A stretch of DNA of 64,000 nucleotides from Deltaproteobacteria bacterium (GCA_033763315.1 JANRKS010000040.1:235631-299630), one strand, 5' to 3'. Counted from the first letter of the stretch, positions 376-53,577 are shown. Numbers and translations: made by a program. Notes: a model not told the origin generated them from the letters alone.

Positions 376-2541
376 ATGAACCAGCCCACATCGCAACCCA
401 CATTGCCCCGCGTCTTCGAGTCGCAACCGCCCGCCACCCAAGCCGCCATCATGGTGGCTCAAGCGCGATCGCTATTGGCATTTGGTGAACCGGGAGCCGC
501 GGCTCGTCTGTTGTCAGGCTCGATGCATTTGGCGCCGCATTCTGTGGATTTGCTGCAAACGTTGGCCGATTGCTTTTTGGCGCAAAGCGATCTTGCTTCC
601 GTGAAAGACACCATGGAGTACGCGCGGCGCTTGCATCCCGACGATGTAGACATCGCCGCGCGCATCGCGCTGTCGGCTCTCGCAGGCTTGCCGGCGAATG
701 AGCCAGCGGTTCAAGCGCCGCCGATTCAGGCTCAAGCGCACAAACCCACCTGCGTTTTCATCAACACCTACTACCCCGCCTTTCTCGCGTCCTTCCGCGC
801 ACGTCAGCCAGGCTTGGCAAATGCGCCTTACGAAAAGCAGAAGGCAGACCTGCTTGGCACCTGCTTTGGTGACAGTGACTTCTATTCTTCGGGCCTGCGC
901 AAAGCGGGCTGGATCGCAGACGAATTGGTGGTGAACGATGTGGACTTGGCCCAAGCATGGAGCCAAGCTCATGGCTTCTCATTTACGCAACCGTTAGACG
1001 TCGCGGTGGAGCAGATCCGTCGCCTGCGTCCTGATGTTGTGTACCTGCAAGACCTGGGCATCGCCGACACGGCTTTTGTGAGCCGCATTCGTCCCTACAC
1101 GCAACTGATCGTGGGGCAGATTGCGTCGCCCATGCCACCGCAAACGGACTTGCGTGGCTTTGATCTAATCATCACGTCTTTCCCCCACTTTGCAGATCGC
1201 TTGCGGCAAGCGGGCGTCACCGCGTATTACCAGCCGCTGGCCTTCTCACGTAAGGTCCTCGATCGTGCAAAGCCAGGCGCGCGGACGCGGCCGTTGACCT
1301 TCGTGGGAGGACTGTCGCCACAGCATCCGGCAGGCACCGAGCTGCTTAACAGGTTGGCGCAATCCACCAACATTGAAATCTGGGGTTACGGCGCGGCGGC
1401 ACTGCCACCCGACTCGGCCATTCGCGCCCGCCACCGCGGCGAAGCGTGGGGGGAGGATATGTTCCGCCTGCTGGCCGAATCACAAATCACCGTGAACCGG
1501 CATATCGCGGTGGCTGAGAACCACGCCAATAACATGCGCTTGTTTGAAGCCACGGGCTGCGGGGCTCTGCTGATCACTGATTACAAGGACAACCTGCAGG
1601 ACCTGTTTGACATCGGAAAAGAAGTGGTGGCCTACCGCTCGCCACAAGAATGCGAGGCTTTGATTCAGTATTACCAAGCGCACCCCGCGGAGGCGGAACA
1701 GATCGCAAAAGCCGGCCAAGCGCGCACCTGGCGAGACCACAGCTACGACGCGCGTCTGCAGGACACAGCGGCGATTCTGGAGCGTCACCTTCGCCACAAG
1801 CGTGAGGTGGATGCGTTTGCGGCCGTGGATCTCGGTGCCGTATCCACCGCCTATAGGGCCATGGACGCGGCCCACGTGACGCCAGCACTGATAGACGCGT
1901 GGAAAAACGAACAATTGCCACAACGACAGCGAGCCCTGGTGCACCGCGAGCTTGGCGAAATGTATAAAGGGCGGGATGTTGTGCCCTTCAAGGTTCTGGC
2001 CGACGCCCTCAATCCCGAGCTCGGTCGCATGCCTGCCGGCACCAAATCCCTATTAGAGATTGGTTGCGCCAGTGGGTACTACTTTGAAGTGCTGCGCTTT
2101 TTGTGCAAACAACCCATCGCCTATACAGGCGTCGACTATTCGCCGGCGATGATAGCGATGGCGAAGGACTATTACCCGCAGGCGACGTTCAGTGTGGAAG
2201 ATGGCGCCAAGCTGCCGTTTGCAGACCGCAGTTTTGACGTGGTTGTGTCGTCCTGCGTTTTGCTCCACGTGCCAAACTATCGTGAGCACATCCAAGAGAC
2301 GGCGCGTGTGGCGCGCGACCTCGTGGTGGTGCACCGAACGCCGGTGTCGCGACGCCAACCGACCAAGCACCTGCACAAGCAGGGCTATGGGGTGGATATG
2401 GTGGAGCTGCAGTTCAACGAGACTGAGCTAAACCAACTGTGGAACGCCGCGGGATTTACGCTGGTTTCAGGCATTCAGTACCACGCCGATGAAGCGGCTG
2501 ACGAGTATGGCGTGACTTACGTCTACAAAAAGGTGGCGTGA
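376..2541 (+). CDS. TPR + CgeB/Glyco_trans_1_2-type glycosyltransferase + class I SAM methyltransferase fusion
   Basis: N-terminal TPR-like helices; NMRLFEATGCG GT motif; C-terminal LLEIGCASGY SAM motif I and FDVVVSSCVLLH. AAGGA precedes the ATG. Confidence 0.8.
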   Translation: MNQPTSQPTLPRVFESQPPATQAAIMVAQARSLLAFGEPGAAARLLSGSMHLAPHSVDLLQTLADCFLAQSDLASVKDTMEYARRLHPDDVDIAARIALSALAGLPANEPAVQAPPIQAQAHKPTCVFINTYYPAFLASFRARQPGLANAPYEKQKADLLGTCFGDSDFYSSGLRKAGWIADELVVNDVDLAQAWSQAHGFSFTQPLDVAVEQIRRLRPDVVYLQDLGIADTAFVSRIRPYTQLIVGQIASPMPPQTDLRGFDLIITSFPHFADRLRQAGVTAYYQPLAFSRKVLDRAKPGARTRPLTFVGGLSPQHPAGTELLNRLAQSTNIEIWGYGAAALPPDSAIRARHRGEAWGEDMFRLLAESQITVNRHIAVAENHANNMRLFEATGCGALLITDYKDNLQDLFDIGKEVVAYRSPQECEALIQYYQAHPAEAEQIAKAGQARTWRDHSYDARLQDTAAILERHLRHKREVDAFAAVDLGAVSTAYRAMDAAHVTPALIDAWKNEQLPQRQRALVHRELGEMYKGRDVVPFKVLADALNPELGRMPAGTKSLLEIGCASGYYFEVLRFLCKQPIAYTGVDYSPAMIAMAKDYYPQATFSVEDGAKLPFADRSFDVVVSSCVLLHVPNYREHIQETARVARDLVVVHRTPVSRRQPTKHLHKQGYGVDMVELQFNETELNQLWNAAGFTLVSGIQYHADEAADEYGVTYVYKKVA

Positions 2542-4292
2542 TGGAAACCCGGCGAAGCTATTGTACGCAGTCGGACAGCAATTACCTCACGCGGGGCATT
2601 GCGCTGTGCGAATCGATGCAGCGCCATGAGAAACACCCGTACGTTATCTATTACGTATGCCTCGACGAAATCACCCGCACAGTGCTTGAAGCGTTGCGGT
2701 TGCCCAATGTGATCCCCGTGCCTTTGCACGACGTGGAGCGTGGCAATGAGCCGCTGCGGGTGGCGCGCGGCAATCGCTCTCTGGTTGAATACTATTGGAC
2801 GCTGACGGCCACCATCTTGGATTGGGTGATGGAGCAGCACCCCCAGATCCACACCCTCACTTACCTCGACGCGGATCTATACTTCTATTCCTCTCCGGAT
2901 CCGGTTTTTGAGGAGCTCAAGCAGGGATCCGTCGCCATCCATGAGCACCGGTTCTCGCCCGAACTCGCACACTTGGCGGTTGAGAACGGGCGCTTCAACG
3001 TGGGCCTTATGAGTTTTCGGCGCGACAGCAACGGCATGGCGGCGTTGCGCTGGTGGCGCGATCGCTGCCTTGAGTGGTGCTATGCCAAGCCCGAAGATGG
3101 CAAGCTAGGCGATCAAAAGTATCTGGAACAATTCCAAACACGTTTTAGTGGCGTGGTGGTGCTGCAACACCTGGGCATCGCGTTGGCGCCCTGGAACCAA
3201 TCGCAGTTCACGATTCAAAGCTCCCCGGGCACCACGCCCACAATCAACGGCCAGCCGCTGGTGTTTTTTCACTTTCACGCCTTGGCCGTGCCAGATCCCG
3301 ATGTGGTGATCGCAGCCAAACACGCCTATGTGGTGGGTGAGTCAGTGGTGCGCGCGTGTTACGTCCCCTACTGTGAGGCGCTCGATCGGGCCGCCGCACG
3401 CATCAGGGGCGTTGCACCCAGCTCTTCTTTCGGCATGCACGAACCGGTGCCCGTCCGCGCTGAACACGCCCTGATCGTGAAGCAAGGCGCGCTCGGCGCC
3501 AAGCCGGGACTGGCGCCCATTGCCACGCAACGACGGCGGGTATCCATGGGTGCGTGGGACGCCTATTTCCCTGATCCCGCCGCACGACCGGTGCACACCG
3601 AACAGGCTCATGACACCCAAGGCAGCGGCGACGAGTTGCTGCTGTCTTTGCATGGCTTGCTGATCACGCGCAAGGTTGAGACATTGGTGTTCGCGGGGGC
3701 ACATCTGTTTCAAGAAGCCTCGTTGCTGTTCACGTTGCTGCCGAAGCTCAAACGGGTTTACCTGTTTGAGCCGCTGCCTCAGCTCTTCGCCAAGCTCAAG
3801 CAATGGGAAGTGCGCGATCCGCGCGTGCGGGTGTTTCCTTATGCGCTCAGCGACGGCGACGGGCAGGCCACCTTTCACGTCACCAACAACGACGCGCAAT
3901 CCAGCTCGCTGCTGCCGTTGGCGAAGCACACGGAGATCTTCCCCGAAGTGGTTGAAGTGGAGAAGATCACCGTGGAGCGAAAAACACTGGCCAGTGTGAT
4001 GGCTTTTCATGATCTTGCGCCGCCAGATATGCTGTTTATCGACACGCAGGGCGCCGAGTACCAAATCCTGTCGTCGTTGTCTCAAGATCTCTTGCGTGGG
4101 GTGTCCCTCATCTACACGGAGGTGAGCACGGAAGAGCTCTATGCCGGAGGCCGCACCTTGGATGACATCAAAGCCTTGCTGGCACCCGAATTCGTGTTCG
4201 TGGCGTTTGCGCCGTTGTTTCCTCACACCCCTACGCACGGAAACGCGCTGTTTGTGAATCAAAATGCGACGTGGCTGCTCAAGCAGGGCTAA
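2538..4292 (+). CDS. GT-A glycosyltransferase + FkbM-family methyltransferase fusion
   Basis: YLDADLYF DxD motif and FNVG...DQKYL in the N-half; FAGAH...FEP, SSSLL and IDTQGAEY FkbM motifs in the C-half. Start overlaps the upstream stop. Confidence 0.75.
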   Translation: MMETRRSYCTQSDSNYLTRGIALCESMQRHEKHPYVIYYVCLDEITRTVLEALRLPNVIPVPLHDVERGNEPLRVARGNRSLVEYYWTLTATILDWVMEQHPQIHTLTYLDADLYFYSSPDPVFEELKQGSVAIHEHRFSPELAHLAVENGRFNVGLMSFRRDSNGMAALRWWRDRCLEWCYAKPEDGKLGDQKYLEQFQTRFSGVVVLQHLGIALAPWNQSQFTIQSSPGTTPTINGQPLVFFHFHALAVPDPDVVIAAKHAYVVGESVVRACYVPYCEALDRAAARIRGVAPSSSFGMHEPVPVRAEHALIVKQGALGAKPGLAPIATQRRRVSMGAWDAYFPDPAARPVHTEQAHDTQGSGDELLLSLHGLLITRKVETLVFAGAHLFQEASLLFTLLPKLKRVYLFEPLPQLFAKLKQWEVRDPRVRVFPYALSDGDGQATFHVTNNDAQSSSLLPLAKHTEIFPEVVEVEKITVERKTLASVMAFHDLAPPDMLFIDTQGAEYQILSSLSQDLLRGVSLIYTEVSTEELYAGGRTLDDIKALLAPEFVFVAFAPLFPHTPTHGNALFVNQNATWLLKQG

Positions 4293-6049
4293 GGGCTGTT
4301 GGCAAACGCATAGAGGCGCACAAACAGCCCCGTCAAACTTGTGGGCACTCGCTCTCCGTGCCACGTTTGCAGGAGTCGACGCATATGCGTTTTGATGAGC
4401 GCCAGCTCCTCGGCTTCCGTGGTCAAACGAAACGCCTCAGGATCCAGCAAAGGCAGCAACGAATCTGCCCCCTGCTCCACCACATCACTCAACAGATCGG
4501 CCTGCCGCAGCCGATCGGCGCGCTGGTATACATCAAGCCGAGCCTCGGCCGCGTGAGCGATGCTGCTTAACTTGTGGCGACCGTAAACGCCAATCGGTGT
4601 GTGTTGCGGCAAGGGATAGCTTTGCCGCAAATCGAATAAGGACCGGTGATGGTCAAAGGCGTACCACCGAAACGCCTGCACGATCCGTTCGGCCCGCCAG
4701 CCGTCCGCCAGCGCGCTTTCAATCGCAGCAAAATAGTGTTCGCGGCTTTCGTCACCCACATAGTTGAGCTCCGGCGGATAGAACACCAGCTCCTTGGAAT
4801 AGATGACCGCAGGAATCCCGAGCAGCGCCATCTCCTTGCCCGCGCTTGACCAGGCATTAAGAAAGACGTCCGTGATCTCTGCCAGATCGAAGATCGAAAT
4901 CTCGTCTGTGGGCCAGTTAACCCGTACGTTGGCGGGAAGCGTGGCGAAGAGCTGTTTTAGCTTCGCAGCGTGCTGCGAAACGTTGCCGCGAAACTCACGC
5001 GGGTGCACCCGAATGATGAAGAACAAGTCGGGACGATCGGCGACGTATTCGATCACCGCTTGCACCCAATCAGCTTGACGGTCAAAGAGCAACCGGCCTG
5101 AATAATCAGGCAGGGCATGCACAGCCTCGGCCGCAAACCGTTCATCGTAGCTGCTCATCGTTGCAACCAACACGCTGGCGCCGCCCGGCACGCCGAAGCG
5201 TTCGCGCAGATCGCCCACATCTTTATTGCGCGCCGATGAATACGCCCAATGACCAATGCCTTGGATCAAGGTTAGGAAGTGATCCACCGTCTGCGAGATC
5301 TCATCGCCCCCCGCGGGAATGCCACTCCACCGGGGCCAGTCGGCAATCTGCTGGGCAAAAAAGTCAAACGTGTATCGGCGCGTGAGGAAGATGTATTGAA
5401 TTCGATGCGCAAGATTGGCGCCGGCGTGCAGCGAATAGCAAGGAATGCCTTGCGATTCCACGTAGTGAAGGAAGATCTGGTTTACGGGGTAAAGCGCGTT
5501 GTAAATGATTACGCGCTCGGGCTTTTCCTGTGCCACCAGCTTCTTGGCCGCCGCCAAACCAAGCAGCGTGTTGAACAGCTCGATGCGGTAGATCGCCATC
5601 TCTTCGGCACTGAAATGCAGATCAATACGCTTCGTATCAAGCAGCAGTACATAAAGCGCCGTGCGACCCACGGGCATGCCGTCAACGAAGTAATTCTCAA
5701 CGCCCTCTTTCGGGCACGCTTCGAGCATCTCGTTGGCCCAGGTGACGTCGGCCTCGGTGATGACATCCGAGAGCCGGCAGCCCGGCAACGCCATATTTGT
5801 GCGCAGCAGTTCGCCTTGAAAATGGCAAAGCGCGCACACCCGCGATCGCACCTCAAGCGAACTGCCGTGCGGCGCGCTGTTGGCGTCCATGGCCTCGCAG
5901 TGGTTTTTCAACACCTCGCCGCACGTGACGTAACAAACGTCATGCCCCGACTTCATCAGAGATTCAGCGAGCACAGCTTCGGGAAACGCATGCACCCAAA
6001 TCGCTGCGCGCGGGCTTAAAAACAGCACCTTTTTCTTACTTGTGCTCAC
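4289..6049 (-). CDS. Capsule-biosynthesis (KpsS-like, GT-B) protein; candidate nonulosonate transferase
   Basis: IRVHP motif and WSSAGKEMALLGIP segment. Last gene of the pse operon. GTG start chosen at 6049, just after the pseI stop. Confidence 0.55.
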   Translation of the reverse strand: MSTSKKKVLFLSPRAAIWVHAFPEAVLAESLMKSGHDVCYVTCGEVLKNHCEAMDANSAPHGSSLEVRSRVCALCHFQGELLRTNMALPGCRLSDVITEADVTWANEMLEACPKEGVENYFVDGMPVGRTALYVLLLDTKRIDLHFSAEEMAIYRIELFNTLLGLAAAKKLVAQEKPERVIIYNALYPVNQIFLHYVESQGIPCYSLHAGANLAHRIQYIFLTRRYTFDFFAQQIADWPRWSGIPAGGDEISQTVDHFLTLIQGIGHWAYSSARNKDVGDLRERFGVPGGASVLVATMSSYDERFAAEAVHALPDYSGRLLFDRQADWVQAVIEYVADRPDLFFIIRVHPREFRGNVSQHAAKLKQLFATLPANVRVNWPTDEISIFDLAEITDVFLNAWSSAGKEMALLGIPAVIYSKELVFYPPELNYVGDESREHYFAAIESALADGWRAERIVQAFRWYAFDHHRSLFDLRQSYPLPQHTPIGVYGRHKLSSIAHAAEARLDVYQRADRLRQADLLSDVVEQGADSLLPLLDPEAFRLTTEAEELALIKTHMRRLLQTWHGERVPTSLTGLFVRLYAFANSP

Positions 6050-6057
6050 GGCGGTTC

Positions 6058-7113
6058 CTATTCCAGCATATCCCAAGTCAATGCCGTGCCCCGCTTTAGC
6101 GCCCGCTTGAGCTTCCGCCCCAGCACCTGCTCGAAGTGTTTGGGGGCCATGGCGAACCCCGGACGAATGACACGCAAGTTCTGGCGCGTGAGCGGCTCAC
6201 CCGCGGCCACGTCAGCAACAACATAAAGCGACCGCCGAAACACGCGCGATCCCGCTTCGGCCTTCAATGTGCCGTACCTCACCTCACCCAACGCCTGCCA
6301 GGCACGTTCGGTTTCCACCACCAACGACGCCATTTCAGCAGGCTCAAGCGAAAACGTGGAATCCACCCCGCCATCGCGCCTCGCCAGCGTGAAGTGCTTC
6401 TCCACCACGGTGGCCCCCAGCGCCACCGCCGCCACCGCCGCGCCCACACCCATGGTGTGATCCGAAAGACCCACTTCCACATCGAACAACTGGCGCAAAT
6501 GAGGAATCGTTCGCAGGTGCGAGTTCAGCGGTGTTGCTGGATAGGTGCTCGTGCATTTGAGCAAAATAAGGTCCCGGCAACCGCCCGCGCGAGCCGTGGT
6601 CACCATCTCTTCAAGTTCGGCCAAACTGGCCATGCCGGTGGAGATGATCATCGGCTTGCCCGTGCCAGCCACCTTGCGGATCAAAGGCAGATCGGTGTTC
6701 TCGAACGAGGCAATCTTGTAGCAAGGCACCGCAAGCGATTCCAAGAAATCAACCGCCGTTTCGTCGAACGGGGTGGAGAAACACAGCATGTTGCGTTCAG
6801 CGGCCCGCGCAAAAAGTGCCGCGTGCCAATCCCATGGCGTGTGTGCTTCTTGGTAAAGCTCGTACAGGGAGCGCCCCGCCCACAGACTCTTCGGATCGTT
6901 GATGCGAAAATCGCCCTCATCAAGATCTATGGTCATCGTATCGGCGGTGTACGTTTGCAGCTTGATCGCATGGGCACCCGCGTCGGCCGCGGCGTCTACG
7001 ATGGCCAACGCCCGCTCAAGCGATTGGTTGTGGTTGCCCGACATTTCAGCGATCACAAACGGCGCGTGAGCGAGGCCCACGGCGCGCGACCCGATGTGCA
7101 AGGTTTTGCTCAT
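6058..7113 (-). CDS. pseI: Pseudaminic acid synthase (NeuB family)
   Basis: IAEMSGNHNQS, KLQTYTADT, KIASFE, GLSDHT, EKHFTL and a C-terminal SAF domain. ATG 7113 overlaps the upstream TGA. Confidence 0.92.
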   Translation of the reverse strand: MSKTLHIGSRAVGLAHAPFVIAEMSGNHNQSLERALAIVDAAADAGAHAIKLQTYTADTMTIDLDEGDFRINDPKSLWAGRSLYELYQEAHTPWDWHAALFARAAERNMLCFSTPFDETAVDFLESLAVPCYKIASFENTDLPLIRKVAGTGKPMIISTGMASLAELEEMVTTARAGGCRDLILLKCTSTYPATPLNSHLRTIPHLRQLFDVEVGLSDHTMGVGAAVAAVALGATVVEKHFTLARRDGGVDSTFSLEPAEMASLVVETERAWQALGEVRYGTLKAEAGSRVFRRSLYVVADVAAGEPLTRQNLRVIRPGFAMAPKHFEQVLGRKLKRALKRGTALTWDMLE

Positions 7114-7856
7114 GCTTTCCCCGTGTTCTCCAAATGGCGCCCCACCATGAATGCTTCGGCCGCCTCCATGCCCACAGAAGCGCCCCGCCATAGGGCAAGA
7201 TGGGTCACGGCTTCAATCGATCGCGCGTGTGGCCAGGCACGCATCTCGCTGCTGTAGCACCGTAAGGCCTCTTGCTTGCGTGGCAAGGTGGCGCCAACGT
7301 CCACAAACCACGTGGGCACAAATGGTGCGCTCGCAGGATTCCATTCGGTGCTCGACGGCACTTCAAAGAACAGCAAGGTTTGCACAAAGAAGCCCGGCTG
7401 CGGGCGGCAAGCCGTCACCACTGCGTTGTGCACGCACGCGTGATCCACATTGAGATCCGATCGATTGTGCGTGTAAACCACCGCGGGCCGGTGCGTGGCT
7501 AAAAATGCTTCCACCACTTTAACAACGTCGAGAAGCGCCACAGTGTCCATGCGGTTGTCGGGAAAGTCGTGCAACACCAACGATGACGTTCCCAACACAG
7601 CATGCGCGGCTTCGGCCGCCTGCCGCAGTTGAGAAAGGCCGCTTTTGTGCGCCCCCACGTCGCGCGTGGGATCTCGGCTCGTCAGCCCTTCCGCCAAAAT
7701 GAGCACCGCCACGGTATCGCCCTCGGCAACGTGGCGAGCGATCACGCCGCCGCACCCCAACACTTCGTCATCGGGGTGTGCCGCGATCACAGCCACGCGG
7801 CGAGGGCCTTTGTTGTTGACGATGGAGCTCATGAAAATCTGTGCCTTTGCCTTCAA
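7110..7856 (-). CDS. PIG-L/LmbE family de-N-acetylase
   Basis: AAHPDDEVLGCGG, DLNVDH, EVPSSTEW and AEAF motifs. Confidence 0.9.
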   Translation of the reverse strand: MKAKAQIFMSSIVNNKGPRRVAVIAAHPDDEVLGCGGVIARHVAEGDTVAVLILAEGLTSRDPTRDVGAHKSGLSQLRQAAEAAHAVLGTSSLVLHDFPDNRMDTVALLDVVKVVEAFLATHRPAVVYTHNRSDLNVDHACVHNAVVTACRPQPGFFVQTLLFFEVPSSTEWNPASAPFVPTWFVDVGATLPRKQEALRCYSSEMRAWPHARSIEAVTHLALWRGASVGMEAAEAFMVGRHLENTGKA

Positions 7857-8542
7857 GAGCCTTTGGGTTTGGGCACCACGCGCACCTGTGCCGTCAGCGA
7901 TTCGCCCTGCAGGCTGGCATGGCTGAACTCGAACCTCAAGAATTCCGTTTCGATGAACGCCGCTGGATACCCCGGGGCGTCCAACATGCGTATGAAGTCG
8001 TACGCGGCGTCAATCGATGTGACTTGCGCCATTTCACTTTCGTGCGGCCTGCGCCGGGCGAACGCCACGGCCTCTCCGGTTTGCGGCATCGGTGTTGGCC
8101 TCGTCGCCACAATTTCCGCAATCATGTCCTCGATGAGATGGGTGCCGCGGATGTAGATCTCTTCCGCGCGCCCCGCAAGCGAAAGCGGCCGCTTGAGGTA
8201 GACAGGCCCTGTATCGAGCCCCGCCTCACAGCGCAGCGCCGTCATCTGAGTGTCCTGCACGCCACGCACCAACAGGTTCTGCAGGGGGCTGCCGCCGCGG
8301 CCAAACGGCACGTCGGTCATGTGGAAGATCACGCACGTAAACGTGTCAAACACGCTGGCGGGGATCCGATGAGACCAGTGCGGAAAGAACACCCAGTCGG
8401 GCGCGAACGCCTTCAGCGCCTCCGCGGTGAGCTGTTCGGGAGCGGTGATGTGCCTTGTGACGGCGCCGCACCTGGCAGCCACGCGCTCGGCAAGGCCGGG
8501 CACCCAATCCCTCGAAGTGGCGATGACGATCCGTGGCTTCAT
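7853..8542 (-). CDS. Stand-alone N-formyltransferase (Fmt-like)
   Basis: FHMTDVPFGRGGSPLQNL, LDTGPVY and IRMLDAPGYP. Translationally coupled on both sides. Confidence 0.85.
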   Translation of the reverse strand: MKPRIVIATSRDWVPGLAERVAARCGAVTRHITAPEQLTAEALKAFAPDWVFFPHWSHRIPASVFDTFTCVIFHMTDVPFGRGGSPLQNLLVRGVQDTQMTALRCEAGLDTGPVYLKRPLSLAGRAEEIYIRGTHLIEDMIAEIVATRPTPMPQTGEAVAFARRRPHESEMAQVTSIDAAYDFIRMLDAPGYPAAFIETEFLRFEFSHASLQGESLTAQVRVVPKPKGS

Positions 8543-10272
8543 GACGACCGCCGGTCCTTCTCAATACGCAACACGTACCGCACACCGTGGTGATCGAAGA
8601 ACGCAGGATAGGCGTCGTTGTCCACCACCCGCAGCAAGTTGAATTGTTCAGCCAACGTGAGCGCAGGATCGAGGCGGCTGTCTTCGGCGCGCCTTCGGGG
8701 ATAGGTGCTTGGGGTGCCCCTTTGCTCGCACGCCGTTTGTACAGCCTCGGGGTAATTCTGCACCCACCACTGGCACAGGCGCAACGTAGCCTCGGCTTGC
8801 AAGGCGCGCAACTCATCGACCAGCTCATGACCTTGCAGCTGCATTTGGGTCTGCGCATAGATCGGCCCGCTGTCCACGCTGAGCTGTGCCTCGAACAAAG
8901 TTACGGGTATGCAAGCCTTGCCCTCAAGAACTTGCCACGTCATCGGTGACCAGCCACGGCCGCGTGGCAGATCACTTTCATGCACCACCACATTGTGCAC
9001 GTTTCGCGCAAGAATCGCCGCGCCAGCCAGCTGGCCGCAACTCAAGAACAGCGCACAATCGCCCATCCCCAGCGCGTTGACTTGATGCACCCACGTCACC
9101 TCGTGGCCAGCCGCCTTCCACCCATCAAGCAAAGGTGGCAGAAAGCGGTTAAGCCAGCTGTGCTCATCGGAAACAACGTTTAAGCGGAGGCGACGATCAA
9201 GCGCCGCCGCCGCGCGCGCGGCGCCCTGCCCGTCGACCAGACGCTGGCCTCGTTGCGACAGGCGCGCAAGCAACGAGGGCCGCGCCAGCATTCGCGCGAT
9301 GGCCGAGGCCACAGCGTCAATGGTCAGAGCCTCCGCGTTCCCCAAAAACCACGCAAACCGTTCGGCACCCGCGCCCTTGCCAATCTCTATCTGGTTGTGG
9401 GCGATCGCAATCAGGATCGCAGGCAGCCCCAAACAGCACCGTTCCCACGTGGAGATGCCTGGGGCGCCAATCATAAGATCCGCTGCCTGCATCAACGCCG
9501 CCATCTGGTCCGTCTGCACGTGAAGTTGCGCACGGGGCAAAGCCGCGCACAAGCGCGCCACCTCTTCCGCCTGCGGGTGGCTCTTGCCGATCACCACATC
9601 GATGTGAAGGTTCTCGCTCGCCACACGCTGCAGGGCCTGCAGCACCAAGCCAGTGACGTTGTGTGGATCGCCCCCGCCCAGGCTCACCAGCAAGCGACGC
9701 GCACTTACGGCTGGGTGTGGCCACAGGCGCGGCTTTTGGCGCCGCAGCTCGAGAAACGCGGGCCGCAACAGTGCAAAACGTGGCCCCAGCAACAGCCGAC
9801 AATTCGTGGGCACAAGGCCCTCGTAACGGCGGGGTTGCAACTGCAAATTGGCGTCCAGCAGAACATCGGCGTCGTGAGGGCGATCGGCCAAATCGTCGAT
9901 CACAGCCACTTGCTGCGCAAAGGCACGCAGGTTCCGCTCAGCACGCGCGTCGAGCGCGTAGTGATCCACCACCGCCCAATCCCAGCTTGACAAGGACCCA
10001 AGCGCAGCGTTGACCTGTTGCACTTCTTCGTCGAGGCTCGCGCCTAACCAGCGTGCGTGTCGTGGCCCCGCCGCCGTCGGATTGCCCAAAGGCAAAGCAA
10101 TCACTTCAAACCCTTGCGCCTTCACATGCTCGGAAAAGTGCCCAGGATGCAGCCGCGACAGAAACACAACTTGGGCACCGCGTGCCCGCAAAGCGGCTGC
10201 CAGCGCCAAGCAGCGCATGACGTGGCCAGAGCCAATCTCGGTCGAGGCGTCAGCCCTGACCAAAACCCTCAT
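8539..10272 (-). CDS. pseG: PseG UDP-sugar hydrolase fused to a C-terminal formyltransferase domain
   Basis: RADASTEIGSGHVMRCLALA, VVDHY, IDDLADR and TWERCCLGLP (PseG), then VHESDLPRGRGWSP and VDSGPIY (formyltransferase). ATG 10272 overlaps the pseC stop. Confidence 0.88.
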   Translation of the reverse strand: MRVLVRADASTEIGSGHVMRCLALAAALRARGAQVVFLSRLHPGHFSEHVKAQGFEVIALPLGNPTAAGPRHARWLGASLDEEVQQVNAALGSLSSWDWAVVDHYALDARAERNLRAFAQQVAVIDDLADRPHDADVLLDANLQLQPRRYEGLVPTNCRLLLGPRFALLRPAFLELRRQKPRLWPHPAVSARRLLVSLGGGDPHNVTGLVLQALQRVASENLHIDVVIGKSHPQAEEVARLCAALPRAQLHVQTDQMAALMQAADLMIGAPGISTWERCCLGLPAILIAIAHNQIEIGKGAGAERFAWFLGNAEALTIDAVASAIARMLARPSLLARLSQRGQRLVDGQGAARAAAALDRRLRLNVVSDEHSWLNRFLPPLLDGWKAAGHEVTWVHQVNALGMGDCALFLSCGQLAGAAILARNVHNVVVHESDLPRGRGWSPMTWQVLEGKACIPVTLFEAQLSVDSGPIYAQTQMQLQGHELVDELRALQAEATLRLCQWWVQNYPEAVQTACEQRGTPSTYPRRRAEDSRLDPALTLAEQFNLLRVVDNDAYPAFFDHHGVRYVLRIEKDRRSS

Positions 10273-11429
10273 GCGCCGCTTTCCTTGATCGCCTCTTTTA
10301 AGGCTGCGATGCACACGTCTTGCTCGGCAAAAGACAACGACGCATAAAGCGGCATAGATATCGCCTCGGCATAGTAGCGTTCCGCTTCAGGAAACATGCC
10401 GTCACGGAAGCCCAACGCCATAAAGTCAGGCTGCGTATGCACGGGGATGTAGTGCACATTCACGCCGATGTCAGCCGCGCGCAATGACTCGAAGATCTCT
10501 CGCCGCTGTGCCGCCGGCACGCGCACCACGAACAGATGCCACGAAGGGTCGGCATCGGAATGAACACCCTGCACGTGCACAAGGGTGTGTGCCAGGGCGG
10601 CGCGATAGCGTTCCACCAACACGCGGCGGCGGGTCACGAATGTTTGCAGCCGGTGCATTTGGCTTGCGCCCAACGCCGCCTGGATGTCGGTCATGCGGTA
10701 GTTGAAGCCAAGCTCAACCTGCTGGTAATACCAAGGGCCATGCGACTCCCCCTGCATCAGCGCACGCTCGCGCGTGATGCCATGGGTTCGCAGCCGCAAT
10801 AGGCGTTCGAACAACGCTTGGCTCTTCGTGACCACCACGCCGCCTTCGCCCGTGGTCACGATCTTGACCGGATGAAAGCTGAAGATGGTGGCATCGGAGT
10901 GATTGCAGTTGCCTACGGGTGCGCCCTTGTAACTCGCGCCAATGGCATGCGAAGCGTCTTCCAGCAAGCGAAAGCCGTAACGGTCTGCCAATGCGGCAAA
11001 CTCGGCCATCGGGCAGGACTGCCCCGCGAAGTGCACGGGGATCACAAGCTTTGGCATCAGCCCGCCGCTGCGCTGCGTGCGTTCGAGCTTGTCCGCCAAG
11101 GCGGCCACGCTCATATTCAAGGTTGCTGGATCAATATCCACGAAGTCCACACGTGCGCCGCAGTAGCGCGCGCAGTTGGCGCTCGCCACAAACGTATTGG
11201 GCGACGTCCACACCATATCCCCTGGCCCCACGTCCATCGCCAAACAAGCCAAATGCAAGGCCGCGGTGGCAGAGCTCACGGCCACGGCGAAAGGCACCGC
11301 GGCGGCCTGCGCCACAGCCGTCTCAAAACGCGCGATCGCTGGACCCTGCGTAAGCCAATCCGAACGCAACACCGCCTCCACGGCTTCAATGTCGTCGTCA
11401 TCAATGGACTGGCGTCCGTACGGGATCAT
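10269..11429 (-). CDS. pseC: UDP-4-amino-4,6-dideoxy-N-acetyl-beta-L-altrosamine transaminase
   Basis: MIPYGRQSID, LTQGP, EDASHAIG, FSFHPVKIVTTGEGG (PLP Lys) and GFNYRMTD. Confidence 0.93.
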   Translation of the reverse strand: MIPYGRQSIDDDDIEAVEAVLRSDWLTQGPAIARFETAVAQAAAVPFAVAVSSATAALHLACLAMDVGPGDMVWTSPNTFVASANCARYCGARVDFVDIDPATLNMSVAALADKLERTQRSGGLMPKLVIPVHFAGQSCPMAEFAALADRYGFRLLEDASHAIGASYKGAPVGNCNHSDATIFSFHPVKIVTTGEGGVVVTKSQALFERLLRLRTHGITRERALMQGESHGPWYYQQVELGFNYRMTDIQAALGASQMHRLQTFVTRRRVLVERYRAALAHTLVHVQGVHSDADPSWHLFVVRVPAAQRREIFESLRAADIGVNVHYIPVHTQPDFMALGFRDGMFPEAERYYAEAISMPLYASLSFAEQDVCIAALKEAIKESGA

Positions 11430-12424
11430 AGGGCGGATCCGTTAAACTCTTTCAGCTCAGCGGTGGTCAAGAAGTGCGGGTTCGTATCGGAGGCATATTT
11501 GAAGCCTTCGTCCACGGGCTTGCCACTTTCACCTAGGGCATTGGTGGAAAACTCCGTGACGTTTGCCAGCTGCAGCGTGGGAGCGATGACGAAGTGATCT
11601 GCAAACTCATACGTGTGTGTGCTGTCGTCGCGGGAGATCATCGTCTCATGCAGCTTTTCACCGGGACGAATGCCGATCACACGGTGAGGCATCCCAGGAG
11701 CGATTGCCTCCACCAAATCCAAGATGCGCACGGAAGGAATTTTCGGCACGAAGATCTCGCCGCGCCGCATGCGTTGAAAATTCTTTAGAACGAAATCTAC
11801 GCCGACCTGCAGCTTCAGCCAAAAGCGGGTCATGCGTGGATCAGTCACCGGCAGGACTGTGGCGCCTTCGGCAACCAAGCGCTTGAAGAACGGCACCACC
11901 GACCCGCGCGAGCCCACGACGTTGCCATACCGAACCACGGCAAAACGCGTGCGGTGCGTGCCAACGATGTTGTTGGCCGCCACAAACAACTTATCGGAAA
12001 GCAGCTTGGTGGCCCCGTAAAGGTTGATAGGGCTTGAGGCTTTGTCGGTGGATAGGGCGATCACCTTCTCAACACCGTTTTCGATGGCCGCGGCGATCAC
12101 GTTTTCAGCACCCGAAACGTTGGTACGAATAAACTCGGTGGGATTGTATTCAGCCGCCGGCACTTGTTTGAGCGCGGCCGCGTGAACCACAAAATCGACG
12201 TCGCGCATGGCTTGGCGCAAGCGGGCGGCGTCGCGAACGTCACCCAAGAAGTAACGCATACAAGGTGCATTGAACTCCTGCGACATATCGAACTGTTTCA
12301 GCTCGTCGCGCGAGAACACCACCACGCGCCGGGGCTTGTAGCGTTGCAAAATGGTGCGAATGAATTTTTGACCAAAGGATCCCGTGCCACCCGTGATCAA
12401 GATCGACTTCTCGTTAAGCATCAC
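11426..12424 (-). CDS. pseB: UDP-GlcNAc 4,6-dehydratase (inverting)
   Basis: ITGGTGSFG, FSRDELKQ, HAAALKQVPAAEYNP, LSTDKA, YGATK and RYGNVVGSRGSV. Confidence 0.95.
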   Translation of the reverse strand: MMLNEKSILITGGTGSFGQKFIRTILQRYKPRRVVVFSRDELKQFDMSQEFNAPCMRYFLGDVRDAARLRQAMRDVDFVVHAAALKQVPAAEYNPTEFIRTNVSGAENVIAAAIENGVEKVIALSTDKASSPINLYGATKLLSDKLFVAANNIVGTHRTRFAVVRYGNVVGSRGSVVPFFKRLVAEGATVLPVTDPRMTRFWLKLQVGVDFVLKNFQRMRRGEIFVPKIPSVRILDLVEAIAPGMPHRVIGIRPGEKLHETMISRDDSTHTYEFADHFVIAPTLQLANVTEFSTNALGESGKPVDEGFKYASDTNPHFLTTAELKEFNGSAL

Positions 12425-12465
12425 ATCCCTACCTGTTGGTCAGTCTCGGCAACCCCGCCGCCCGT

Positions 12466-13593
12466 TCAAACCTGGAAATCGCCTTCCAAATAGAAAACTG
12501 AATTAAACGTCTTCGCAAACAGCCGGTACCCCTGCGCTCGCATGAAGCCGTGCACGGTTGAACCCAACACGGCTGCGACATCCGACTGCAAACACTCCAC
12601 CACCACACACTGCGGGCGAAAGCGTTCCCAATCGTTTGATTCAAGTACCTTCAGGTCCAAGCCTTCCACGTCCACCGACATGAAGTGGATGGGCGCCCCA
12701 GGTACCAAGCACTGATCCAGGAGATCGGCCAGCGGCACCACATCCAGCTCGCGTGTTTGCACAACGTGGTACGCCCCACTCTCGCGGCTACGGGTCAGCT
12801 CTTCATCGAACGAATTCAATGCGGGATCATTGAACATGTAATACGTGAGCTTGCCGTAGACGTTCGAAACACCGCAGGCAACGTTCACGTCCCCGGGCCG
12901 CACGGCAGCGAACGCCGCCATAAGTTCGGGGTTTGGCTCAATGTTTACGCCCCGCCAGCCTTGCAGATAGAACCGGTGCGTGTTCGAGAAGCGCAAGGGG
13001 TGATGCGCGCCCACGTCCACGTAAAGCCCCAACTTCTGCCGGTCGAATAGGCGCGCCAGAACAAGGTCCTCGCCCTCCTGGCTGTAAGACACGTTCATAA
13101 ACTCTGTGTGGGGATGGCTCGTCACCGCGTGAGTTGGAACAGCTAAACGGGGACCACTGTAGATCAGAGGCTTATCGAGTAGGCCCAGACGTGACACGGC
13201 TTGCTCCGGTTGAGCCGCCAAAGCCGCCATCAGGCCCACCACCTGCACATCGAACGGATGACGACGCAAGAACGTTTGCACCACGTCTGACGCCCGTTCG
13301 GGTGCCCCCGCGTTCATGAAACACAACGCCAACAACGCCACGCTTACAGCGTTGTCAGGCTCCAGCTCTAGGGCCCGCGCCAGCGCAGCGGCCGCGGTAT
13401 CAAAGTCAGGCGACCGAAGGATGGGTAGTTTACCGCCGGCCGCACGACACAACGACCACGCCAGACCGTGGTAGGCATGCACGTCGCGCTCGTTTTCTTT
13501 GCACGCCTGCAAGAACCGTTCGGCGGCTTTGGCATAGTCGTGCCGGGCCAGTAAGGCGCGCGCCTCAACCAGCGTGGGGGTTCGTGCAAGCAT
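12466..13593 (-). CDS. TPR + FkbM-family methyltransferase
   Basis: N-terminal TPR-like helices; YSQEGED, YVDVGAHHP...SNT, GWRGVNIEP and SVDVEGLDL. Confidence 0.85.
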   Translation of the reverse strand: MLARTPTLVEARALLARHDYAKAAERFLQACKENERDVHAYHGLAWSLCRAAGGKLPILRSPDFDTAAAALARALELEPDNAVSVALLALCFMNAGAPERASDVVQTFLRRHPFDVQVVGLMAALAAQPEQAVSRLGLLDKPLIYSGPRLAVPTHAVTSHPHTEFMNVSYSQEGEDLVLARLFDRQKLGLYVDVGAHHPLRFSNTHRFYLQGWRGVNIEPNPELMAAFAAVRPGDVNVACGVSNVYGKLTYYMFNDPALNSFDEELTRSRESGAYHVVQTRELDVVPLADLLDQCLVPGAPIHFMSVDVEGLDLKVLESNDWERFRPQCVVVECLQSDVAAVLGSTVHGFMRAQGYRLFAKTFNSVFYLEGDFQV

Positions 13594-13710
13594 GTCGCCT
13601 GTTTACAGTGCGGGATCGGCCGTTACGCTGTCAAAAAATACGCCATGGCACCGCAAGCCACATCACGCAATCCACGCCCAAAAGCGTCCATGGTATGACT
13701 TTGCCCCACC

Positions 13711-14625
13711 GTGAAGTCGAAACCAAAGACCATCACCGCCCCGGGCGCCGACTATTCCATTCGTGTTCTGGGCGCGCACAACTCCGCACTCCGCGATTTT
13801 TACCATGCCTTGCTGTTGTGGCGTTGGCCCACAACTGTGGTGGCGATCGCCGCCATGTTCATGCTGGCAAACACGGTGTTCGCGTTTGCTTACATGCTGA
13901 CCGACGGCGTGGCCAACGTTCACCCCGGTTCCTTTTTGGACTGCTTCTTCTTCAGCGTGCAGACGATGGGCACGATTGGTTACGGCTATATGTATCCGGC
14001 CACAACGACCGCCGAAGTGGTGGTGGTGGCGGAAACCATCACCAGCGTGACGCTCACAGCCTTGGCCACGGGCCTCGTGTTCGCAAAGTTCTCGCGCGCC
14101 AGCGCTCGTGTGTTGTTCAGCGATACGGTCACCATCAGCCCGATGAATGGCGTGCCCACGCTGCGTTTGCGCCTGGGCAACCAGCGTAACAACCAGATCA
14201 TTGACGCCCGGGTGAAGGTGCAGCTGCTGCGCACGGAGAAGCTTAAGGAAGGTGGAGTGTTCTACCGCATGGTGGACGTGAACCTCGTCCGTGAAAACAT
14301 CCTCTCGCTGTCACGATCGTGGACCGCTTTGCACGTGATCGATGAATCAAGCCCGTTGTGGCAGGCTACCCCAGAGTCATTGGCCTCCGATGAAGCCGAG
14401 CTGCACGTGTTGTTGATGGGACTCGACGACACAACGTTGCAGCCCGTCCACGCTCTGCATCGGTATTTTTCGCAGCAGATCTTGTGGGGTCGGCAACACG
14501 TGGACATCCTCACGGAACGCGACAGCGGCGTGCTGGAGCTCGATCTGCGCCGCTTCCACGAACACGCGCCCACCGAGCCCACGCCCTCGTTTCCTTATCC
14601 AAAAACCGTATCAACAAAGCCTTAA
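13711..14625 (+). CDS. Inward-rectifier potassium channel (KirBac)
   Basis: FFFSVQTMGTIGYG selectivity filter, GLVFAKFSR and a cytoplasmic Kir domain. Confidence 0.92.
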   Translation: MKSKPKTITAPGADYSIRVLGAHNSALRDFYHALLLWRWPTTVVAIAAMFMLANTVFAFAYMLTDGVANVHPGSFLDCFFFSVQTMGTIGYGYMYPATTTAEVVVVAETITSVTLTALATGLVFAKFSRASARVLFSDTVTISPMNGVPTLRLRLGNQRNNQIIDARVKVQLLRTEKLKEGGVFYRMVDVNLVRENILSLSRSWTALHVIDESSPLWQATPESLASDEAELHVLLMGLDDTTLQPVHALHRYFSQQILWGRQHVDILTERDSGVLELDLRRFHEHAPTEPTPSFPYPKTVSTKP

Positions 14626-14755: not shown

Positions 14756-17700
14756 ATGCGTGGCTTTCGGTGTGTGGTGGTTTTTGCGGTGTTGGTGGGG
14801 ACGGCCGCATGTACGGTCAAGGCAACGCCCACGGGCACACCAGGTCCTGTGGACGGTGGCCAGGTCGTAGAGGCCGGTGTTCCTGGTCGACCCGATCCGG
14901 TCGCGTGCGATCCGTCCGCCGTCCTCAAGGACGTGGCCGAATCATGCACGTGCAACGCAGAGTGCGGCACCGGCCGTTGTGTGGATGGCGTGTGCTGCGC
15001 CAGCGCTTGCGACGGCCTGTGTGAGGCCTGCAATGTGCCCGGAAAAGTGGGGGCCTGCGCTCCCATCCCCGCCGGCCTGCCGCCCGTGGTGGCCGGTCAA
15101 TGCAAAGTCGACGACGTCAGCACGTGCGGCTTTGATGGCACCTGCAATGGGAACCGCGGTTGCAGAAAATATCCCGAAGGCACCGCCTGTAAAAAAGGGA
15201 TATGTGATGGAGCCACTGTAAAAGGCGAAAAGGTGTGCCGGCTTGGCCAATGCACTGTGGGCCCCGACACCGTGTGCAGCCCCTTCGGTTGTGATCCTGC
15301 AAAATCGGCCTGCTTTGAGACGTGCACCGACGATGGGCAGTGCTCGGCTTCGCAAAAGTGTGCAAGCGGCAGTTGTGGCCTACGAAACATCGGCGCCAAG
15401 TGCGGTGGCAACACGGAGTGCGAATCAGGATTTTGCGCCGATGGCGTTTGCTGCAACACCGCGTGTGATGACGCGTGCGTTACCTGCAACCAATTGTTGA
15501 CCAAGGGCGAGTGCCGGCCGGTGATGGCCGAGCAACCCGATCCGCACAATGTCTGCAAAGACGAAGGCGCTGCCACATGCGGACAAAGCGGAAGCTGCGA
15601 TGGTCAGGGTGGTTGCGCCAAATATAGCGCCTCCACACCTTGCCGCGCGGCACGCTGCGAAGGTGCAAACGCGATTCCCGCCAGCACCTGTGATGGCAAA
15701 GGTTCCTGCCTGGCCGCCAGCCAAGTGGCTTGCGCCCCTTTCGCGTGTTCGGGCAACGCTTGCAAAACCACGTGCAACGACGACACCGACTGTTCGGGCG
15801 CCGTCTGCATCAACAACAGCTGCGGGCTGCGTGGCAAGGGACAGAACTGCACGGCCGCTTCCCAGTGCGCTTCAGGTTTTTGTTCCGACGGCGTTTGCTG
15901 TGACAGTGCATGCACAGGGCAATGCAAGTATTGCGCTTCAGCGCAAGCGCGCGGCAGCTGCGTCAACGTGGCAGCCGACACCGCTGATCCGCGCGCCGCT
16001 GGCGCCAACCCATCAGCCGAGGCCTGCGTGGCTTCCGACCCGCGCACCTGTGGTCGAAATGGCATGTGCAACGGCAATGGCGCCTGCCAGTTGTGGAACA
16101 AGAACACGATGTGCGAAGACCAGAGCTGCTCGGCCGCACAAAACACCTATTACGCGGCCAAAATGTGTGACGGCGCAGGGTCGTGCAAACCTCAAGACAA
16201 CGGCTCGCGCACCTGTTTTCCGAATAAGTGCAACGGCTCAGCGTGTGGCATTGCGTGTGGTTCATCAAACGATTGCGTGGCGCCTAACGAATGCGTCAAT
16301 GGGCGGTGTGGCCCCAAAGCGATCGGCGCCGTGTGTAGCGCCGACAACCAATGTGACAGCGGCTTTTGCCGCCAAGGCGTTTGCTGCCAAACCGACTGCA
16401 AAAGCAGTTGCTATTCATGTGCGCTGGCCAGCACCCGCGGCGTATGTTCGGCCGTACCCGCGGGCGAGCAGGATCCTGCGAAGGTGTGCACGGCCGATGG
16501 CGTGGCCAGCTGTGATCGCGATGGCATGTGCAACGGCTCGGGAGGGTGTCGCCTCTACGCCGCAGGGCAAGTGTGCGCGGGGGCCACGTGCGTGAACGGC
16601 ACCGCGACCGGCGTTTCTAAGTGCGACGGCAAAGGCGAATGCCAAAAAGGCGCCGTGCGTGCGTGCGATGCCTATAAGTGCAATTCCGATGGCACCGCTT
16701 GCTTTGAATCCTGCACAGACAACAGCCAATGCGTCAGCCCGCGGGTGTGCGTGGGCACTTCGTGTGGCGCCAAACCAAACGGCGCCGAATGTCCGAATGG
16801 CGCGTCTGAATGCCAATCCGGGATATGCGTGCAGGGGGTGTGTTGCAACGAAGCTTGTGATGGTGTCTGCAAAACCTGCAAAGGCACAAAAGCGGGCACT
16901 TGCAGCAACGTGGCTCAAGGCGCAGCCGATCCCGCAGGCAGGTGTGCCCCTGCGGCGGGCGCGGCCGTGTGTGGCAACGATGGCACATGCAACGGCAACG
17001 GAGCCTGTGCGAAGGCGCCCAACACAGTTGTGTGCCGCAACCAAACCTGCCCCGCCGATTCAAACACCTTCACCCGATCGGCCAGATGTGACGGCGCCGG
17101 GAATTGCCCTGCACCCGCCACCGTGGATTGCGGCTCGATCAAATGCGACGCCACATCAAACGCATGCCTCACGGGCTGCCAAAACGACGGCCAATGCGTC
17201 TCTGGAAACATCTGTGACGCGGCCACGATGTCGTGCGGAGGGCTCAAACCCAACGGCGCGGATTGCACGGCAAACCGCCAATGCGCGTCTGCGAAATGTG
17301 TAGAGGGCGTGTGTTGCGGCGGCTTGGCCGCGGACCAAAACGCTTGCCCCGCCTGTCAAAGTTGCAAGATCGAAGGGCAAAAAGGCACCTGCCGAAGCGC
17401 GCCTGCGGGCGCGGCAAACGCGGGCGCGTGCCCCGCAGGCACGGGATTTTGTGGCGCGCAAACGTGCAACGGGGCGGGCGCCTGCGTGCAGGCTAACCCG
17501 GCCGGCACGAGCTGCGGCGCACAAACGTGCGTTGACGGCAACAAGGTACAAAGCCAAACGTGTAACGCCAGCGGCATGTGCGTGAACGGTCAGCTCACCA
17601 CGTGCGAACAGGGCTACCGCTGCGCCGACGGCAAGTGCAAGACCTCTTGCACCGTTGCCACTGCCAGCACCGATTGCACCGCGGGCAACATCTGTATCGC

Positions 17701-39206: not shown

Positions 39207-39221
39207 GATGGTTCTCCTGCT

Positions 39222-40946: not shown

Positions 40947-41008
40947 TGATGATTCTCCGCTGTTGGAGGCTGCAGATTGAGGGCACACCAAGTGGGCCCC
41001 TGATGGTT

Positions 41009-53388: not shown

Positions 53389-53577
53389 TCCCAGACAACC
53401 CACCGGGCGCTGCGTTCACTCGCACGCGCCCGGTCGTTTGAGTTTGGGAATATCCGTGCCCACGTCCGTTCGCAACAGGTGGGCGAAAGACGCGCAGGCG
53501 TGGGGCAAAGCAAAGTGTATGCTGCGCCTCCGAAACGCGCCGGCAGTGGAGCCCGCGCAACAAACGGATTCCCGATT

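Follow-up and report, generated by a model that had tools for sequence, protein, structure and literature searches.

Pseudaminic acid (Pse) and its derivatives decorate flagella, pili, capsules and S-layers, and the groups on their nitrogens determine charge, antigenicity and phage recognition. The canonical pathway to CMP-Pse5Ac7Ac, found in Campylobacter jejuni and Helicobacter pylori, proceeds in the order PseB, PseC, PseH, PseG, PseI and PseF according to the relevant sections of two articles (PMC5109656, PMC11040635), the second of which also records Pse5Ac7Fo, formylated on N7, and a formyltransferase, PseJ, that replaces PseH. In the same sections of PMC11040635 the enzymes for non-acetyl Pse substituents are called 'largely unknown', only PseJ and PseA being named there. 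For legionaminic acid (Leg), a 5-N-formyl derivative from Halorubrum is described in part of PMC6137143, and the SugarBase preprint (10.64898/2026.04.20.719630) reports CMP-nonulosonic acids of Candidatus Kuenenia stuttgartiensis that bear a single N-formyl group beside a free amine, tying them to a Leg-type cluster that holds one deacetylase and one formyltransferase. Here, we describe a Pse operon within a 64,000-nucleotide stretch of DNA (hereafter the window) from a Deltaproteobacteria bacterium (GCA_033763315.1, JANRKS010000040.1:235631-299630), the product of which we consider, with about even confidence, to be Pse5Fo7Fo, in which formyl would stand for acetyl on both nitrogens of pseudaminic acid. 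No report of a di-N-formyl Pse or Leg was found in the literature searched, a body of text to which most subscription journals did not belong; a preliminary description of this DNA had taken the same view, treating N7-formyl Pse as known and a 5,7-di-N-formyl Pse as not known to have been described.

The window shares PseB, PseC, PseG and PseI with the canonical pathway, and differs from it in that neither PseH nor PseF was found in the assembled genome, PseG carries a formyltransferase-like domain (FTfus), and the genes for a stand-alone formyltransferase-like protein (FT229) and for a de-N-acetylase of the PIG-L/LmbE family lie between pseG and pseI. The core of the operon is listed below, with coordinates given as positions in the window and open reading frame abbreviated as ORF.

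11426-12424, minus strand: pseB, inverting UDP-GlcNAc (UDP-N-acetylglucosamine) 4,6-dehydratase; full-length match to TIGR03589, 544 bits (cut-off 408)
10269-11429, minus strand: pseC, aminotransferase creating the 4-amino group (the future N7); full-length match to TIGR03588, 519 bits (cut-off 424)
8539-10272 (ORF 8539-10314, 591 amino acids), minus strand: PseG::formyltransferase-like fusion gene; matches to TIGR03590 and to formyltransferase models
9379-10272, minus strand: PseG (UDP-sugar hydrolase) domain of the fusion; TIGR03590, 302 bits (cut-off 154), ORF residues 15-312
8542-9189, minus strand: FTfus, formyltransferase-like domain fused to PseG; residues ~400-590, fmt/ArnA/PRK06988 models at E 1e-11 to 1e-13
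7853-8542, minus strand: FT229, stand-alone formyltransferase-like protein of 229 amino acids; PF21553, 72.5 bits (cut-off 27)
7110-7856, minus strand: PIG-L/LmbE-family de-N-acetylase; PF02585, 88 bits (cut-off 28.2)
6058-7113 (ORF to 7191; start ATG at 7113), minus strand: pseI, pseudaminic acid synthase; TIGR03586, 496 bits (cut-off 340)

These six genes are intact, consecutive and translationally coupled. An ATGA overlap is present at the pseB/pseC, pseC/pseG, fusion/FT229 and deacetylase/pseI junctions, and a TTGA overlap joins the FT229 gene to that of the deacetylase. The coupled operon pseB-pseC-(pseG::formyltransferase)-formyltransferase-PIG-L-pseI of the preliminary description was found gene for gene at its place, and the limits 7110 and 10272 given there are exact gene boundaries. 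PseB, PseC, PseG and PseI are clustered, and all score above their curated equivalog cut-offs. The PseG domain matched the structure of PseG (PDB 3HBM) at E 3e-12, and its GxGH motif is invariant in the homologues. Homologues of the fusion begin at the methionine of an MRV... sequence that corresponds to the 15th codon of the ORF, which places the true start at the ATG of position 10272.

On the basis of their families, PseB and PseC convert UDP-GlcNAc to UDP-4-amino-4,6-dideoxy-L-AltNAc. FTfus, in the place of PseH, is predicted to formylate the 4-amino group from 10-formyltetrahydrofolate, and this nitrogen would become N7; the PseG domain, again by family assignment, then removes UDP. The PIG-L enzyme would hydrolyse the GlcNAc-derived 2-acetamido group, the future N5, and FT229, its constant neighbour, would formylate the freed amine. 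Finally, PseI is assigned by family to the condensation of the hexose with phosphoenolpyruvate, giving the nine-carbon acid. We propose, with slightly less than even confidence, that PIG-L and FT229 form a portable cassette that swaps acetyl for formyl on N5, and that together with FTfus acting on N7 they would direct the operon to CMP-Pse5Fo7Fo. PseB, PseC, PseG, PseI and PIG-L are firmly placed in their families, whereas formyl transfer, its regiochemistry and the Pse5Fo7Fo product are predictions, and the assignment of each paralogue to its nitrogen is tentative. The N5 swap may take place on the UDP-sugar, the free hexose, Pse or CMP-Pse.

FTfus and FT229 are called formyltransferase-like from their matches to the structure 1ZGH and from their conserved His/Asp motifs. 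FT229 aligns with 1ZGH at E 2e-63 over residues 4-223, and the best formyltransferase structure match of FTfus is also 1ZGH, at E 7e-8 over residues 437-581. The family PF21553, which covers the C-terminal domain of 1ZGH, was not reported for FTfus at E ≤ 0.01. When 302 domains were placed in a tree, with three PseJ-like sequences as the root, the 144 of FTfus grouped as a single clade (support 0.96), separate from the 158 of FT229. By these comparisons the two are paralogous families, and FTfus is a sister clade within the 1ZGH family. Neither unit matched PseJ (6CI2/6CI4) at E ≤ 1, and the PseJ-like gene of locus L067, which served as a positive control, matched 6CI2 at 5e-60; on sequence grounds, FTfus and FT229 belong to the 1ZGH family and not to that of PseJ. 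At E ≤ 1e-10, 6065 relatives of the fusion were found among 8000 scored; for FT229, 2525 representative clusters were found at E ≤ 0.001 and 275 at E ≤ 1e-30. In genome samples FT229 is sparse: three of 400 further genomes from the phylum of the window encode it, as do four of 400 others in the phylum of genome G401. The genome holds no further copies of FTfus, FT229 or the deacetylase. That FT229 might be a housekeeping Fmt was rejected, its sole other relative in the genome (contig C27) scoring 32 bits and the family sitting in Pse loci. A reading of the two units as degenerate relics was likewise rejected, their motifs being invariant across hundreds of sequences.

Natural fusions bear on the step at which each unit may act. 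Among the best 150 FT229 representatives, FT229 is fused to a PseH-like GNAT in 31 (28 with the GNAT alone and three with PseG and GNAT), to an FTfus-type domain in two (P0250 and P0277), to PIG-L in one (P0266) and to PseI in one, and in protein P0284 a PseJ-like N-terminal half (6CI2, E 2e-56) is joined to a 1ZGH-like C-terminal half (E 8e-59). Welded in this manner to N7 acyltransferases of three unrelated kinds, FT229 would most simply be a second acylating step, one that those enzymes do not carry out, and the pattern is that of a protein acting alongside an N7 acyltransferase instead of replacing it. Since its partner, PIG-L, belongs to a family of 2-acetamido de-N-acetylases, the freed amine would be its natural target. 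Fusions of PseG to a PseH-type GNAT are common, in agreement with the preliminary description, and the PseG-FTfus fusion mirrors them.

The gene content of related loci was surveyed in a census of 88 Pse loci, of which 80 came from a scan for PseG and FTfus motifs in one genome per species and seven were reached through FT229, the window being the last. The loci were annotated with phmmer, a custom GNAT hidden Markov model (HMM) and Pfam, at thresholds set by the authors; genomes that are related do not count as independent, and the rows with FT229 are biased by the seven loci reached through it. By content of N-acyltransferase and PIG-L genes, the loci divide as follows.

PseH-like GNAT only: 42 loci
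FTfus only: 11 loci
PseJ-like only: 2 loci
None of these genes: 7 loci, mostly short contigs
FTfus, FT229 and PIG-L: 6 loci (the window, L012 of Desulforamulus aquiferis, L084 of Moorena bouillonii, L095, L104 and L105)
GNAT, FT229 and PIG-L: 5 loci
FTfus and PIG-L: 4 loci
FT229 and PIG-L: 2 loci (L018 and L049)
GNAT, PseJ-like and PIG-L: 2 loci
PIG-L only: 1 locus
GNAT and PIG-L: 1 locus
GNAT, FTfus and PIG-L: 1 locus
GNAT and FTfus: 1 locus (L090)
FTfus and FT229: 1 locus (L036, a 4-kb contig)
GNAT and FT229: 1 locus (L078, contig ending inside pseI)
FT229 only: 1 locus (L097, followed by a PIG-L-like ORF of 99 bits, below the set cut-off)

Loci that lack the deacetylase have one N-acyltransferase each: a second one is present in only three of 66 such loci, compared with 14 of the 22 with PIG-L. 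FTfus is the sole N-acyltransferase, with neither GNAT nor deacetylase, in 11 of the 88 loci, and when five FTfus-only genomes were searched in full, no match to PseH reached the cut-off and no PIG-L from the window's subfamily was found; in such genomes FTfus must therefore acylate the only free amine, that of the PseC product, which becomes N7. FT229 is accompanied by a deacetylase in 14 of 16 loci, counting the weaker 99-bit match, and the two loci without PIG-L (L036 and L078) sit on truncated contigs. It is accompanied by FTfus or GNAT in 13 of 15 loci, L097 being left out since its upstream side is cut off. The complete set of FTfus, FT229 and PIG-L adjoins PseG and PseI in five genomes besides that of the window (L012, L084, L095, L104 and L105); it is a widespread variant of which the window is one ordinary example.

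Other genes also keep company with PIG-L. A class I methyltransferase of 262-264 amino acids is encoded beside it in L018, L035 and L049, directly adjoining the PIG-L gene in L035 and separated from it by FT229 in L018 and L049; GNAT is present and FT229 missing in L035, and the opposite holds for L018 and L049. This arrangement hints at N- or O-methylated variants. Genes for ATP-grasp ligases travel with PIG-L and FTfus in L017, L020 and L089, and in one protein of 1015 amino acids (P0098) such a ligase is fused behind PseG-FTfus, an association which suggests that an amino-acyl group could be placed on the freed amine.

Assayed PIG-L/LmbE enzymes, such as MshB and BshB, de-N-acetylate the 2-acetamido group of GlcNAc-derived substrates. 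In the deacetylase of the window, the AHPDDE and NxDH motifs are invariant among 38 homologues, residues A17-E23 and D130-H131 being invariant or nearly so. Its relatives number 7528 at E ≤ 1e-20 among 8000 scored, and the 120 listed are mostly 57-68% identical. It scores far under the equivalog cut-offs for BshB1 (54 against 182 bits), MshB (20 against 224) and Mca (20 against 277), and belongs to a separate and highly conserved PIG-L subfamily living in Pse loci.

The absence of PseH was examined across the whole assembly, which comprises 40 contigs totalling 7.63 Mb and is 90.85% complete. The TIGR03585 profile gave a best match of 36 bits, compared with a cut-off of 93. As this cut-off fails on PseG-fused GNATs, that of L079 scoring merely 44 bits, a profile HMM was built from 31 PseG-fused GNAT domains; run against all six-frame ORFs of the genome, it gave best scores of 22.9 and 22.4 bits, compared with 45-224 bits for the GNATs of other Pse loci. 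That no GNAT pseH is present, first stated for the operon, thus extends to the assembled genome. A GNAT on contig C7 was considered as a PseH acting in trans and was rejected, scoring 22-23 bits on the PseG-linked HMM and 32 on TIGR03585.

Several observations weigh against a Pse5Fo7Fo product, and the first concern the chemistry of the two units. On PF00551 (Formyl_trans_N) FTfus and FT229 reach 24.8 and 23.7 bits, just under the gathering score of 26.1. Asn, His and Asp form the catalytic triad of GART, Fmt and ArnA, and the Asn two residues before the catalytic His, a position set by alignment to the N of 'INSH' in Pseudomonas aeruginosa Fmt (5UAI), is replaced by Ile in FT229 and by Val in FTfus. 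The literature searched yielded a structure for 1ZGH, with neither a function nor an assay for its family. It is accordingly conceivable, though in our judgement unlikely, that one of the units is not a 10-formyltetrahydrofolate-dependent formyltransferase, but transfers another group, or is a hydrolase or a scaffold, so that the product would be Pse7Fo bearing a different group on N5, or vice versa. In other loci the place of FT229 beside PIG-L is taken by ATP-grasp, WbqC, GNAT or hexapeptide transferases, which is in keeping with such an alternative; the partners of PIG-L are variable, and the N5 chemistry is therefore variable too. Against it, 10-formyltetrahydrofolate dehydrogenase, an enzyme that does transfer formyl, also has Ile at the position of the Asn (alignment to 4QPD), and the missing residue therefore does not disqualify FTfus or FT229. 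Furthermore, all significant matches of the units are to formyl-transferring enzymes, and both families keep the catalytic His, the Asp and the folate-loop motif, (S/T)xLPxGRG, with little or no variation, the His lining up with that of Fmt and of 10-formyltetrahydrofolate dehydrogenase. In 18 fusions, H445, D481, S447, L449, P450, G452 and G454 of FTfus are invariant, as is its SxLPxGxGWSP motif; in 40 homologues of FT229, H74, P79, R82, G83 and G84 are invariant, D110 is present in at least 90% and a GRGGSPLQN motif is conserved. Formyl transfer by both units remains our preferred assignment.

A second group of observations concerns the assignment of FTfus to N7. That the fused domain replaces PseH, as the preliminary description proposed, fits the 11 loci in which FTfus stands alone and the five of five genomes without PseH, but does not hold throughout the family. 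The best 120 relatives of the fusion comprise 80 with PseG-FTfus and 40 in which a GNAT is kept between PseG and FTfus, and Methanospirillum stamsii encodes PseG-GNAT and FTfus with no PIG-L; FTfus therefore does not always replace GNAT, and both can coexist. The acetyl-CoA loop of the GNAT in these triple fusions is 50-80% conserved, compared with at least 80%, and the view that this GNAT is inactive was set aside, the drop being insufficient to call the domain decayed. D. aquiferis, which has the same architecture as the window, encodes a 116-bit PseH elsewhere in its genome; none was found in the genome of Moorena. For the window, the absence of PseH rests mainly on the custom HMM, in a 91%-complete genome, since TIGR03585 misses PseG-fused GNATs.

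The proposed N5 swap by the deacetylase and FT229 stands in a similar position: it agrees with the near-constant pairing of FT229 with PIG-L and with the fusions of FT229 to N7 acyltransferases, but does not account for L018 and L049, which hold FT229 and PIG-L with neither GNAT nor FTfus. A search of the whole genome containing L018 (G404) found no PseH over the cut-off. In these two loci FT229 may serve N7 itself, or one amine may stay free. A free amine could likewise be the outcome in the window, if one formyltransferase formylates N7 and PIG-L strips the N5 acetyl, leaving the amine free or methylated; the second formyltransferase-like protein would then be redundant, act at another stage on the same nitrogen or give glycoform variation. 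We regard this as improbable. The Kuenenia sugars, as far as the preprint text describes them, have just such a pattern of one formyl group and one free amine, and would be the strongest rival for the role of the deacetylase, although with one formyltransferase instead of two; their cluster is Leg-type. A single N-acyltransferase is found in seven of the 22 PIG-L loci (FTfus in four, FT229 in two and GNAT in one), and the methyltransferases beside PIG-L in L018, L035 and L049 point the same way. On the other hand, the window has two paralogues from distinct clades, and redundancy is difficult to reconcile with FTfus and FT229 being kept together in six loci and even fused in P0250 and P0277, or with the fusion of FT229 to N7 acyltransferases of three unrelated kinds. 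Formylation of both nitrogens remains the preferred outcome.

The genes just upstream of the window allow another alternative, in which the deacetylase and FT229 would serve another sugar of the glycan, such as an amino-deoxyhexose whose pathway is encoded upstream, instead of pseudaminic acid. Locus L008 (13063-17937), 15-20 kb upstream of the window, encodes an NDP-hexose 2,3-dehydratase, a GFO-type oxidoreductase, a DegT aminotransferase and GT2 glycosyltransferases, which constitute an amino-trideoxyhexose pathway, probably for the same surface glycan. We find this alternative highly improbable: FT229 lies in a Pse locus by PseG or PseI in 16 of 16 loci, including distant taxa without the upstream genes, and is also fused to PseG-GNAT and to PseI.

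Activation of the sugar also bears on a CMP-Pse5Fo7Fo product. The operon itself encodes no CMP activation, and the best match in the genome to canonical PseF (TIGR03584) has 30 bits, compared with a cut-off of 206, an absence on which the preliminary description is silent; the only cytidylyltransferases found in the genome are SpsF/KdsB-like ones on contigs C7 and C21. The genes on the first of these are the following.

Contig C7, locus L009, 5225-8919: a GNAT (not PseH-like), a cytidylyltransferase::class III aminotransferase fusion (693 amino acids) and an aldo-keto reductase

The cytidylyltransferase-aminotransferase fusion is not PseF by TIGR03584. Aligned from end to end, it shares 44% identity with the product of the gene directly upstream of pseG in Moorena, and the same module sits between pseC and pseG in L011, L016, L018, L035, L049, L080, L084 and L089. 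Flagellin glycosylation islands of Aeromonas are described, in the portion of PMC7874193 that deals with them, with the same reductase, aminotransferase and deacetylase accessories, in predicted roles. The SpsF-like fusion of C7 is the sole candidate found for CMP activation, and could possibly be a stand-in for PseF or part of a further tailoring set. Contig C21 (locus L010, 6529-13592) bears a second cluster of ulosonic-acid type, comprising a KdsB-like cytidylyltransferase, a split transketolase, a class III aminotransferase, an SDR protein, a HAD hydrolase, a fatty-acid-hydroxylase-family protein and a NeuB-like synthase scoring 246 bits on NeuB_NnaB (cut-off 400).

From 4289 to 13593, every long ORF with family support lies on the minus strand, and two further genes flank the core.

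12466-13593, minus strand: gene for a protein with TPR and an FkbM-type methyltransferase domain; PF05050, 70 bits, and TPR families (Pfam)
4289-6076, minus strand: gene for a protein of 595 amino acids; weak match to a BFO_1060 glycosyltransferase domain, 28.6 bits (cut-off 200)

The TPR/FkbM gene ends 41 nucleotides upstream of pseB and probably opens the transcription unit, its co-transcription with the operon being presumed. The gene for the 595-amino-acid protein overlaps the end of pseI by 19 nucleotides, and a similar protein also follows pseI in locus L060; it is a candidate glycosyltransferase for the finished sugar. A scan of positions 3800-14200 gave no promoter-like sites, and terminator-like sites at chance level.

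Two large plus-strand proteins (376-4292), with glycosyltransferase-like and methyltransferase domains, converge on the end of the Pse operon; the first combines TPR, Glyco_trans_1_2 and a class I methyltransferase, and the second an unnamed N-terminal half with FkbM. Divergent beside the operon, at 13711-14625, lies a gene for a bacterial potassium channel of the inward-rectifier type (IRK_C, 86 bits, and an ion channel domain). Farther away, five gene pairs of DUF1592/DUF1588/DUF1595 (PSD/PSCyt) and DUF1552 (HXXSHH) proteins occur within ~85 kb, at 24671-27825, 31639-34694, 37857-40991 and 48508-51512 in the window and at L008:7015-10097, and two of them adjoin paralogous pairs of a Reg_prop histidine kinase and a LuxR regulator (27971-31530 and L008:2287-5902). 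Two very long ORFs, at 14756-18253 (1165 amino acids) and 53479-58320 (1613 amino acids), have no Pfam match at E ≤ 1e-6.

Taken together, the operon is real, and the mechanism first put forward for it is the best available hypothesis. The locus and its relatives provide a testable assignment for three widespread families: FTfus, FT229 and the PIG-L subfamily, the last of which has thousands of members that are ~60% identical across phyla. If correct, the assignment would explain how bacteria edit N5, a nitrogen that arrives already acetylated from GlcNAc, would predict Pse5Fo7Ac and Pse5Fo7Fo as natural sugars, and would supply enzymes for the chemoenzymatic synthesis of N-modified Pse.

Among characterized enzymes, PseJ of Anoxybacillus kamchatkensis (6CI2/6CI4) is the formyltransferase reportedly assayed by Reimer and colleagues in 2018 and credited with Pse5Ac7Fo. 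FTfus is proposed to do the same job, adding formyl to the PseC product where PseH would otherwise act, and the two share a superfamily fold, but they belong to different families, and PseJ has the canonical NxH motif that both units of the window lack. 1ZGH, aligned to FT229 over its whole length and more weakly to FTfus, is a structural-genomics deposit labelled as a methionyl-tRNA formyltransferase, a label that ill fits a family sitting in Pse loci. With MshB, BshB and PIG-L, the deacetylase of the window shares its Pfam family and the AHPDD and xDH metal-binding motifs, and it falls outside the MshB, BshB and Mca equivalogs; the literature searched held no assay of a PIG-L enzyme or of a 1ZGH-type protein in a nonulosonic acid pathway. 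As the preprint describes it, the Kuenenia cluster resembles the window in that it combines a deacetylase with a formyltransferase among nonulosonic acid genes and lacks an N-acetyltransferase, and its modification has been seen at the level of the CMP-sugar. The Kuenenia cluster, as described there, belongs to the legionaminic branch and has one formyltransferase, while the window belongs to the pseudaminic branch and has two.

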